Positions 1 to 3,000 of a stretch of DNA of 64,000 nucleotides are shown here, one piece after another; the first letter of the stretch is position 1; each line of letters starts with the position of its first letter. Source of the DNA: Escherichia coli O157:H7. GTDB lineage: Bacteria; Pseudomonadota; Gammaproteobacteria; Enterobacterales; Enterobacteriaceae. Position numbers: made by a program. Location: assembly GCF_013167455.1 (NCBI RefSeq), contig NZ_CP038328.1. One strand, written 5' to 3'.

Positions 1-3000
1 CTCATGTCCCCGGTCGGGAACTGCGGCAGGAAGTATTCACCAAGACGCACAGTTACGTTACAGCGTTTGGCGATCTCAACGGTGTTGGCAAGGGCTTCTG
101 GGATGTCGGCAAACAGCTCGCACATCTCCTCTTCGCTACGCATATATTGCTGCGGCGAATAGTTACGCGGGCGTTTAGGATCGTCGAGGGTAAAGCCGTC
201 GTGGATCGCGACGCGGATTTCGTGTGCGTCAAAGTCGCTGCTGTCGATAAAGCGCACATCGTTAGTCGCCACGACGGGCAAACCGCGCGCTTCCGCCAGT
301 TCCACCGCCGCGTGCAGATAGCTTTCTTCATCCGGCCTGCCGGTGCGGATCAGCTCGAGAAAATAGCGATCCGGGAAGTGTTCTTCATAAAACGCGACAC
401 ACTCATCTACCAGCGCGCTGTTACCACGCAAAAGACTGCGTCCGACGTCGCCCATGCGCCCGCCGGAAAGAAGGATCAACCCTTCGTTTAATTCGATAAG
501 CCAGTCGCGATCGATGATCGGCCCGGCGGCACCGTACCCGCGCTGATACGCTTTTGAGATCAGCAACGTCAGATTCTGATAGCCGGTATTGTTCGCCGCC
601 AGTACCGTCAGGTGGGTTAACTCATCACCCAGCAGGTCGCACTGGACGTTAAAATCTGCCCCGACGATAGGCTTAATCCCTGCGCCATGTCCCGCTCCGT
701 AGAACTTCACCAGACCGCAAAGGTTGGTGAAATCGGTGATCGCCAGTGCTGGCATACCCAACGCCGCCGCCTTTTTTACCAGCGGTGCGGTTTTGGCCAG
801 GCCATCGATCATCGAGTAGTCGCTGTGCACCCGCAGGTGTACGAAACGTGGTTCAGACATCTTCAGATTCCGGTTTACTTAATCTCGACACAAGAATCAG
901 GACGCAAGTCCCAGTGCGCGTTTGACAGGCCCAAAGCTGCGCCGATGGTGTTCGGTCGCGCCGTGTTCAGCCAGTTTTTCCAGATGAAAAGCGGTTGGAT
1001 ACCCTTTGTGTTGGGCAAAACCATATTGCGGGAAAACAATATCCAGCGCCGCCATTTCGGCGTCACGCGTCACTTTCGCCAGGATAGACGCGGCACTGAT
1101 TTCCGGTACGCGGCTATCGCCTTTCACCACAGCCATCGCAGGCATCGGTAATTTCGGGCAGCGGTTACCATCAATCAACACATATTCCGGCGCAATATGC
1201 AGCCCAGCGACGGCTCGCTGCATCGCCAGCATGGTCGCATGTAAAATATTCAGTTCGTCGATTTCGTGAGGTTCCGCGCGGCCCAGACTCCAGCTCAACG
1301 CTTTCTCTTTGATCTCTTCACAGAGCGCCAGACGACGTTTTTCGCTCAGCTTTTTGGAATCATTCAGCCCGGCAATCGGGCGCGCCGGGTCGAGAATCAC
1401 CGCAGCGGTGACGACCGCGCCAACTAACGGCCCGCGTCCGACTTCATCCACACCCGCAACCAGCTGCGTGTGCGGATAGACAAATTCGATCATTGTGCTA
1501 ACTCCAGAACGGCTTGTGCCGCCTGCTCATCGGCATTGCAGCGGATCTGCTGATGCAGTTCACGGAAGGTATCGTGCATCGCGTGGCTGGTTTTCCCATT
1601 CGCCAACAGCGGTAACAGCGCCGCAGCCAGTTTTTGCGGCTCACACTCTTCCTGCAATAACTCTTTGACTAACTCTCTGCCCGCCAGCAGATTTGGCAGC
1701 GAGACATAATCAGTTTTCACCAGCCGCTTCGCCAACCAGAAGGTAAAAGGCTTCATGCGATATCCCACCACCATCGGGCATTTCGCCAGCATACACTCCA
1801 GGGCTGCCGTCCCCGACGCCAGTAGTGCCGCATCGCTGGCGACCATCGCCTCACGGCCCATTCCATCCAGCAAATGAACCGACAGGTCTGGCGCGACTGC
1901 AGCTTTGATGCGTTCAAACTGCTCGCGGCGTTTGGCATTCACCAGTGGCACCACGATTTCGAGATCCGGATATGTCTGGCGCAAAAGCTGGGCCGTTTTC
2001 AGGAAATCGGCACTAAGCATTTCGACTTCTGCACCACGGCTGCCCGGCAACAATGCCAGACAGTGGGCATCGTAAGGGATCCCCAGCACATCACGGGCAC
2101 TATTTTTATCTGGATCTAATGGCATGGCATCAGCCATGGTATGACCGATAAAGCGGCACGGTACGTTGTATTTGTCATAAAACGCTTTTTCGAAAGGCAG
2201 AAATGCGAGCACCAGATCGGTGGCTCTGCCTATTTTGAAAACGCGTTTCTGTCGCCACGCCCAGACGGACGGACTGACATAATGAATGGTTTTGATACCC
2301 TGCTTTTTAAGGTTACCTTCGAGGATAATATTGAAGTCAGGCGCATCAATGCCAACAAAAACATCTGGCTTTAGTTCACCAAAACGCTTTGTCAGATCGG
2401 CACGAATATGCAGTAAGCGACGCAGACGACCGAGCACTTCAACAATGCCCATCACCGCCAACTCTTCCATTTCGTACCAGGCTTCGCAGCCTTCAGCCTG
2501 CATTCGTGGCCCGGCAACACCAACAAAGCGGGCGTTGGGCACACGTTCTTTCAGAGCGCGGATTAAACCGGCCCCCAGGATATCGCCGGAGGTTTCTCCG
2601 GCGACCAGGGCAATCGTTAATGGACGCTGTTCAGTCATTAACGAATCAGACCGCGCGTTGAGCGTGCAAAGAAATCGGTAAAGGCTTTCACTTCCGGATA
2701 TGTTTCCGCCAGTTCAGCAATTTCCGGTTTCACTTCATCGAGCGTTTTACCGCTACGATAAATCAGCTTATACGCATTGCGGATAGCGGTAATCGCCTCA
2801 CGGCTGAATCCGCGGCGCTTCAGCCCTTCGATATTGACACCGAACGGCGTGGCGTGGTTACCCTGCGCAATGACATAAGGAGGGACGTCCTGCGCCACAC
2901 CGGAGCAGCCGCCAACCATCACATGCGCACCAATGATGCAGAACTGATGGACTGCGGCCATGCCGCCGATGATCGCGAAGTCGTCAACCGATACGTGACC

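Follow-up and report, generated by a model that had tools for sequence, protein, structure and literature searches.

The analysed window is a 64,000-nucleotide stretch of the chromosome of Escherichia coli O157:H7 (contig NZ_CP038328.1), and the elements in question are the overlaps between stop and start codons of adjacent genes in several of its operons. The window covers the segment from dnaE to gcd of an O157-like E. coli, and each of these two genes is cut by a window end. A 20-kb query from the window found a match in 5,424 of 5,426 complete E. coli genomes, with several O157-type strains at 100% identity. The window corresponds to the reverse complement of positions 145326..209325 of NZ_CP018250.1, with one mismatch in each half, and the RefSeq annotation was therefore transferred directly to window coordinates. 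The transferred annotation contains 59 complete genes, from rnhB through hpt.

The preliminary description of the window, made from the sequence alone, listed seven overlaps of 1-8 nt, at lpxA/lpxB/rnhB, fhuC/fhuD/fhuB, mtn/btuF, pcnB/folK and yadG/yadH. All seven are present exactly as listed, in both the sequence and the transferred annotation (Table 1). The description was anchored on the coding sequence (CDS) of lpxB, which lies on the minus strand and overlaps its neighbours at both ends. Eight same-strand pairs have junctions of the form NTGA, TRATG or NTGNNTRR, that is, spacings of -4, -1 or -8 nt, where negative values denote overlap. These are the seven listed pairs and yadW>erpA, an eighth overlap absent from the earlier list, in which a GGAG motif for erpA is located inside yadW. 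The junction of yadG and yadH reads ATGATG, so that an overlap of 1 nt is as possible as one of 4 nt. There is no room for a terminator or a promoter between overlapping genes, and each pair must therefore be co-transcribed. The operon assignments of the preliminary description are thus upheld, and a dicistronic mRNA has been published for pcnB-folK (PMC1636475; see also PMC4161252).

Table 1. Window coordinates of the overlapping genes, their junctions and ribosome-binding motifs, and of additional RNA features. Energies are predicted pairings with the anti-Shine-Dalgarno sequence.
Feature	Position	Strand	Characteristics
lpxA CDS	2638-3426	-	GTG start, TAA stop; transferred RefSeq annotation
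lpxA/lpxB junction	2636-2640	-	TAATG, 1-nt overlap; lpxA TAA 2640-2638, lpxB ATG 2638-2636; no Shine-Dalgarno motif upstream
lpxB CDS	1490-2638	-	annotation; in-frame stop 26 codons upstream
lpxB/rnhB junction	1490-1493	-	ATGA, 4-nt overlap; rnhB ATG 1493-1491, lpxB TGA 1492-1490
GGAG, Shine-Dalgarno-like, for rnhB, within lpxB	1502-1505	-	-5.9 kcal/mol; kept in junction alignment
rnhB CDS	897-1493	-	transferred RefSeq annotation
fhuC CDS	34432-35229	-	TGA stop shares 1 nt with fhuD ATG (TGATG, 34430-34434); no Shine-Dalgarno motif
fhuD CDS	33542-34432	-	stop overlaps fhuB GTG by 4 nt (GTGA, 33542-33545)
GGAGG, Shine-Dalgarno motif for fhuB, within fhuD	33552-33556	-	-10.6 kcal/mol
fhuB CDS	31563-33545	-	GTG start; in-frame stop 2 codons upstream
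mtnN CDS	25977-26675	+	transferred RefSeq annotation
mtnN/btuF junction	26668-26675	+	8-nt overlap ATGGCTAA; no Shine-Dalgarno motif
btuF CDS	26668-27468	+	transferred RefSeq annotation
pcnB CDS	45881-47278	+	rare ATT start codon (45881-45883) in annotation
pcnB/folK junction	47275-47278	+	ATGA, 4-nt overlap; GAGGG 10 nt upstream, -6.2 kcal/mol
folK CDS	47275-47757	+	RefSeq annotation
yadG CDS	61252-62178	-	transferred RefSeq annotation
yadH CDS	60485-61255	-	4-nt overlap with yadG (61252-61255); AAGGAG upstream, -8.5 kcal/mol
yadW/erpA overlap	28513-28520	-	8 nt; yadW 28513-28578 (21 codons), erpA 28176-28520
CssrA small RNA, rpsB-tsf intergenic	15049-15158	-	Rfam match above gathering score
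t44 RNA, upstream of rpsB	15997-16083	-	Rfam match above gathering score
HtrA (degP) 5' untranslated region thermometer	24241-24286	-	Rfam match above gathering score

The seven junctions differ in their ribosome-binding signals. Those of lpxA>lpxB, fhuC>fhuD and mtnN>btuF lack a Shine-Dalgarno motif, and their predicted pairing with the anti-Shine-Dalgarno sequence is -0.9 to -2.4 kcal/mol. At lpxA>lpxB the value predicted here is -2.4 kcal/mol, and the published anti-Shine-Dalgarno value at the lpxB start is -1.68 (Supplementary file 1 of Burkhardt et al.). The junctions of fhuD>fhuB, yadG>yadH, pcnB>folK and lpxB>rnhB carry a motif, with the energies given in Table 1. Overlapping starts and other starts in the window do not differ in Shine-Dalgarno strength (median -5.75 vs -5.1 kcal/mol, P=0.96).

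The overlap motif by itself carries no information. Of the 18 TGA stops in the window, 12 lie within a bare NTGA (N = A, G or T), and just four of these serve as the start of the next gene; seven stops are followed by TG, and two of these are used as starts. The placement of real gene starts, by comparison, is strongly non-random. The window contains 47 co-directional adjacent pairs, in 22 of which the spacing is -10 to +30 nt; eight of the 22 are at -1, -4 or -8 (P ~1e-4 under a crude uniform null). The same three spacing classes are enriched across bacteria and archaea (PMC12548453, PMC10666635). The share of tight pairs is typical, since it lies near the published E. coli figures: 8/47 pairs overlap (17%; published value ~15%, PMC5318159) and 10/47 fall within -8 to +6 nt (21%; published value 707/2,987, 24%, PMC10666635).

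Five other co-directional pairs, cdsA>rseP, ispU>cdsA, yadX>clcA, yadK>yadC and panB>panC, are separated by +11 or +12 nt, with gaps at 9440-9450, 10309-10320, 30024-30034, 53882-53892 and 55932-55942. They match a small spacing peak at +9 to +12 that is specific to E. coli (Huber et al. 2023, PMC10666635).

Overlaps of this kind could be annotation artefacts, with the true starts located downstream and short spacers separating the genes. Gene callers may indeed disagree, as in one Salmonella assembly, where fhuB is called from an ATG 6 codons downstream (+14 nt), and the ATGATG at yadH makes spacings of -4 and -1 indistinguishable. However, the reading frames leave little space for other starts. 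An in-frame stop is located 2-26 codons upstream of the overlapping starts (fhuB 2, folK 4, btuF 6, yadH 7, rnhB 12 and lpxB 26), and each of these starts is the first canonical one after it. The exception is fhuD, which has the in-frame stop 42 codons upstream and a TTG, likewise overlapping fhuC, one codon further upstream than its ATG. According to our reading of the N-terminal sequences, the next alternative starts would delete conserved or functional features in four of the proteins. Initiation of lpxB at the GTG in codon 33 would remove the conserved GETSGD region, and that of rnhB at the GTG in codon 15 the strand preceding the catalytic GVDEVGRG motif (catalytic Asp). The ATG at codon 16 of fhuD would remove the arginine-rich head of the signal peptide, and the alternatives at codons 12-26 of fhuB the first membrane helix. 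The gene for BtuF, another protein with a signal peptide, has no alternative in-frame start in its first 60 codons. The next start of folK is a GTG at codon 3, and that of yadH is an ATG at codon 2 that would leave an overlap with yadG.

The annotated starts agree with protein data. Most of the Protein Data Bank (PDB) chains of E. coli HPPK (FolK) start at residue 2 (TVAYIA), consistent with removal of the methionine, and the alignment with the enzymes of Yersinia and Haemophilus starts at the same residue. LpxB is present in PDB 5W8N as the full-length 382-residue protein. Homologue lengths and alignment offsets are also consistent with the annotation: in most of 80 species the alignment of the LpxB and RnhB homologues begins at residue 1, and most of the BtuF homologues among the 120 best matches listed have 266 residues. 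Mis-assigned starts, which the preliminary description itself had raised as a way to explain the overlaps, were thereby excluded. Judged from the sequences and their homologues, the overlapping starts are the true starts of the downstream proteins, and we regard it as extremely improbable that the overlaps are artefacts. The preliminary description had also taken the overlaps as support for the chosen start codons; the starts are correct on independent evidence, but the argument from overlap to start is circular.

The conservation of the junctions was compared at two depths. For lpxA/lpxB/rnhB, 80 Enterobacterales loci were obtained from an LpxB scan of species-representative genomes. The other junctions were compared through homologue searches, for each of which the 120 best matches were listed, all at least 70% identical, and through btuF-centred loci of Salmonella, Klebsiella aerogenes and Scandinavium. 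The ATGA of lpxB>rnhB (-4) is present in 70/80 Enterobacterales loci; of the others, five have a spacing of -1 and two of -8, and three Pectobacterium loci have one of +21 to +32. Upstream of rnhB, the GGAG is retained across the junction alignment. At lpxA>lpxB the spacing is -1 in 44/79 Enterobacterales, 0 in 19, +3 in nine and +4 to +8 in five, which places 77/79 at +8 or below; it is larger in two. No Shine-Dalgarno motif was found at this junction at any spacing in the 79 Enterobacterales (median predicted pairing -2.2 kcal/mol). Close relatives differ by single-base steps, such as TAATG, TAAATG and TAAtccATG. The exact lpxA>lpxB overlap therefore drifts, while the junction remains tight and free of a Shine-Dalgarno motif.

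The btuF-centred loci are syntenic in Salmonella, K. aerogenes and Scandinavium. The mtnN>btuF spacing is -8 in all three, with a GTG start in K. aerogenes, and that of fhuC>fhuD is -1 in all three; inspection by eye, without scoring, revealed no obvious Shine-Dalgarno motif at these junctions in the three genera. The fhuD>fhuB spacing is -4 in two of the three, and GGAGG or GGGAGG is present in 3/3. Salmonella and Pseudocitrobacter share the -4 spacing of pcnB>folK, and Salmonella also has the -4 spacing of yadG>yadH. The yadW>erpA overlap was found in Escherichia alone among the genera examined, and the Salmonella yadW frame meets a TGA after 6 codons. In more distant loci, with LpxB 45-72% identical, the order lpxA-lpxB-rnhB is usually kept, and the spacings range from -14 to +66 nt. 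Large spacers (+25, +45 and +66) have a strong Shine-Dalgarno sequence (-7.3 to -9.2 kcal/mol), whereas tight spacers have no strong one. The expectation that the overlaps are conserved in related genomes therefore holds within the Enterobacteriaceae but not in the distant LpxB loci.

The 5' end of fhuB in Salmonella enterica contains a palindromic insert resembling repetitive extragenic palindromes (GCCGGATGGCGGCG...CGCCTTATCCGACCTAC; locus L083, approximately 16930-16990, minus strand). It adds about 19 codons directly after the conserved GGAGG-GTGA, and the downstream ATG call hides the overlap. Because GGAGG-N5-GTGA is undisrupted and shares the reading frame of the called fhuB, the Salmonella fhuD>fhuB overlap is very probably retained.

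The preliminary description regarded the overlaps as the signature of translationally coupled gene pairs. All junction spacings lie inside the range of efficient coupling, -8 to about +6 nt (PMC12548453, PMC10666635), and coupling efficiency peaks between -4 and +3 nt (PMC12548453). In its strictest form, this reading holds that all seven junctions work by 1:1 termination-reinitiation with equal synthesis of both proteins. Strict coupling has been reported for 13 of 14 overlapping pairs (Huber et al., PMC6728339). Subunits of heteromeric complexes are over-represented among close pairs (30.4% vs 6.8%; PMC10666635), a pattern to which fhuCDB and yadGH conform. FhuC, FhuD and FhuB form one complex according to a cryo-electron microscopy report, and YadG and YadH are presumably partners as ATPase and permease of an ABC transporter.

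The same partnerships bear on the proposal that the overlapping genes are co-evolved pairs. It fits the ABC-transporter subunits fhuCDB and yadGH and lpxA/lpxB as pathway partners, but not mtnN/btuF and pcnB/folK, whose products are not complex partners, which also argues against strict 1:1 synthesis. In binding-protein-dependent ABC importers the periplasmic binding protein, here FhuD, would not be expected to match the membrane subunits in amount, and this counts against a strict 1:1 ratio as well. For lpxB/rnhB, the only reported link is the interaction of RnhB with LpxA (PMC10326835). Fusions of LpxB and RnhB, which would indicate a functional link, were also considered. C-terminal extensions of 230-790 residues occur in six long LpxB homologues (P0288, P0297, P0345, P0310, P0380 and P0381), but neither RNase HII nor another Pfam domain was found in them, and these proteins are not such fusions.

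Ribosome profiling, which had been suggested as a check of coupling, is informative for the lpx operon. The K-12 expression values in Supplementary file 1 of Burkhardt et al. (2017) cover lpxA, lpxB and rnhB only; expression of the other four operons was too weak for inclusion in the dataset. The translation efficiency (TE), ribosome density and mRNA level are 0.185, 229.7 and 1240.6 for lpxA, 0.205, 38.0 and 185.7 for lpxB, and 0.435, 71.0 and 163.0 for rnhB. The TE values of lpxA and lpxB are nearly equal across a junction without a motif, which is compatible with coupling and, taken alone, with the strict 1:1 mechanism. However, rnhB exceeds lpxB 2.1-fold in TE and 1.9-fold in ribosome density at about equal mRNA (163 vs 186). 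In termination-reinitiation the downstream ribosome load per mRNA does not surpass the upstream one; lpxA>lpxB is compatible with this relation, and lpxB>rnhB violates it. Since the load of rnhB is about twice that of lpxB on equal mRNA, re-initiation alone is insufficient, and rnhB must also initiate independently. The profiling check is therefore compatible with coupling at the first junction and contradicts a simple 1:1 unit at the second, and a strict 1:1 mechanism at all seven junctions is very unlikely.

Several points limit the case for coupling at these junctions. The mRNA level falls 6.7-fold from lpxA to lpxB despite the 1-nt overlap, so that mRNA is not uniform along the operon, and the equal TE of the two genes is therefore a ratio of two changing quantities. 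The 120-nt windows at overlapping starts are predicted to be more structured, with lower accessibility than those at other starts (median 0.405 vs 0.49, P=0.03), a difference that speaks for coupling but is confounded by the G+C-richer coding sequence upstream of overlapping starts. The cross-species sample for fhu, mtn/btuF, pcnB/folK and yadGH comprises 1-3 genera, all Enterobacteriaceae. A literature search found no published experiment on coupling at any of the seven junctions, and no specific published statement on the lpxA/lpxB, fhuCDB and mtn/btuF overlaps. In E. coli, TE ratios scatter just as widely among overlapping as among non-overlapping pairs (PMC5318159). Depletion of ribosome recycling factor leaves ribosome-density ratios at overlapping pairs unchanged, and mRNA melting with fresh initiation has therefore been argued to be the main route over re-initiation (PMC7538156). 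A scan for an intrinsic terminator or a promoter that could account for the mRNA drop gave no more sites than in shuffled sequence and none at the lpxA/lpxB junction.

The variable TE ratios and the unaltered density ratios after depletion favour the explanation that mutational drift (lost stops, gained starts and small indels) and genome compaction gave rise to overlaps that have no coupling function, with wholly independent initiation of each downstream gene. The exact spacing shifts by single bases in close relatives and is lost in distant ones, the TE of rnhB exceeds that of lpxB, and functionally unrelated genes such as mtnN/btuF and pcnB/folK overlap as well, all of which agree with drift. 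Nevertheless, the three junctions without a motif lie in structured coding RNA and yet serve lpxB, which is essential, and transporter genes that are functional. The lpxA>lpxB junction has remained tight without a Shine-Dalgarno sequence across the Enterobacterales, and large spacers elsewhere carry a strong one. The sharp clustering at -4, -1 and -8, seen in the window and genome-wide (PMC10666635), is not the smooth spread of a drifting distance. In reporter assays, four of five native E. coli pairs with -4 spacing were coupled, bioBF being the uncoupled one, and the dependence on the Shine-Dalgarno sequence was very variable (PMC6728339). We therefore consider drift without any coupling function unlikely. 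The signature claimed in the preliminary description is nonetheless not supported as worded: overlap alone is no proof of coupling, given the variable TE ratios, the uncoupled bioBF and the disputed mechanism.

The junctions are, in all probability, ordinary tight cistron junctions within E. coli polycistronic operons. We infer that coupling at them is plausible and varies from one junction to another. The two genes of a pair must share one mRNA, and the ribosome-binding region of the downstream gene lies within the upstream one. The following mechanism can be proposed. Ribosomes that complete the upstream gene may aid downstream initiation, either by staying on the mRNA and re-initiating or by opening local structure and so giving a free 30S subunit access. 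This effect probably differs in size between junctions. The downstream genes at lpxA>lpxB, fhuC>fhuD and mtnN>btuF, which lack a Shine-Dalgarno motif, would be the most likely to need upstream translation. Those at lpxB>rnhB, fhuD>fhuB, pcnB>folK and yadG>yadH, where a motif is present, may also initiate on their own, as the profiling data indicate for rnhB.

A stronger form of the same mechanism is that the three junctions without a motif are obligately coupled, so that LpxB, FhuD and BtuF are made only by ribosomes that have just left the upstream gene. We consider this possible, although doubtful. If it were true, LpxB output would be tied to the translation of LpxA, and the uptake of vitamin B12 through BtuF would be tied to the S-adenosylmethionine-recycling nucleosidase MtnN, a linkage that is otherwise unexplained.

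The significance of the overlaps is mainly one of annotation quality: they mark genes that are transcriptionally inseparable, and the start codons and gene pairings are confirmed. Knock-outs, CRISPR interference and refactored operons should be expected to have polar effects on lpxB, rnhB, fhuD, fhuB, btuF, folK and yadH. The division of the junctions by Shine-Dalgarno motif predicts which downstream genes lose expression when the upstream frame is truncated.

Two other gene ends in the window are of note. The 3' end of folK (47728-47757, plus strand) encodes about eight final residues, of 160, that are unlike those of K-12 HPPK, and residue 152 is the last one covered by the PDB alignment. 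Among E. coli FolK variants, many match over just ~93% of their length. Because folK adjoins the strain-variable yad fimbrial operon, the sequence suggests a recombination breakpoint within its 3' end. The convergent genes panD (plus strand) and yadE (minus strand) end 3 nt apart, at 58643-58647.

The stop/start overlaps of the window belong to an already known, textbook class of cistron junction. Their codon geometry is identical to that of the -4 (NTGA), -1 (TRATG) and -8 pairs described genome-wide (Huber et al. 2019, 2023; Brown & Wade 2025), and only these enriched classes occur here. The share of such pairs is similar, and, as in the genome-wide classes, a Shine-Dalgarno motif is located within the upstream gene at some junctions only. 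The pairs tested experimentally in those studies include none of the seven junctions. The classical coupled pairs, among them trpB-trpA, galT-galK and prfA-prmC, are likewise tight or overlapping, share one mRNA and have the downstream start embedded in the upstream coding sequence. Nonsense mutations or reporters demonstrated that they depend on upstream translation (PMC6728339, PMC7538156), whereas the pairs of the window are known from sequence. The pcnB-folK operon studied by Mohanty & Kushner (2006, PMC1636475) is the same locus. Their Figure 3 shows the ATGA overlap, and they describe a dicistronic, Rho-terminated mRNA without a test of coupling; FolK of the strain analysed here differs in the C-terminal tail of its 160 residues. 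The gene order of the macromolecular-synthesis operon, lpxD-fabZ-lpxA-lpxB-rnhB-dnaE, is identical in the window. Within this operon rnhB has been described as co-operonic with lpxA, and RnhB was reported to bind LpxA in a study whose subject lay outside overlaps and translation (PMC10326835).

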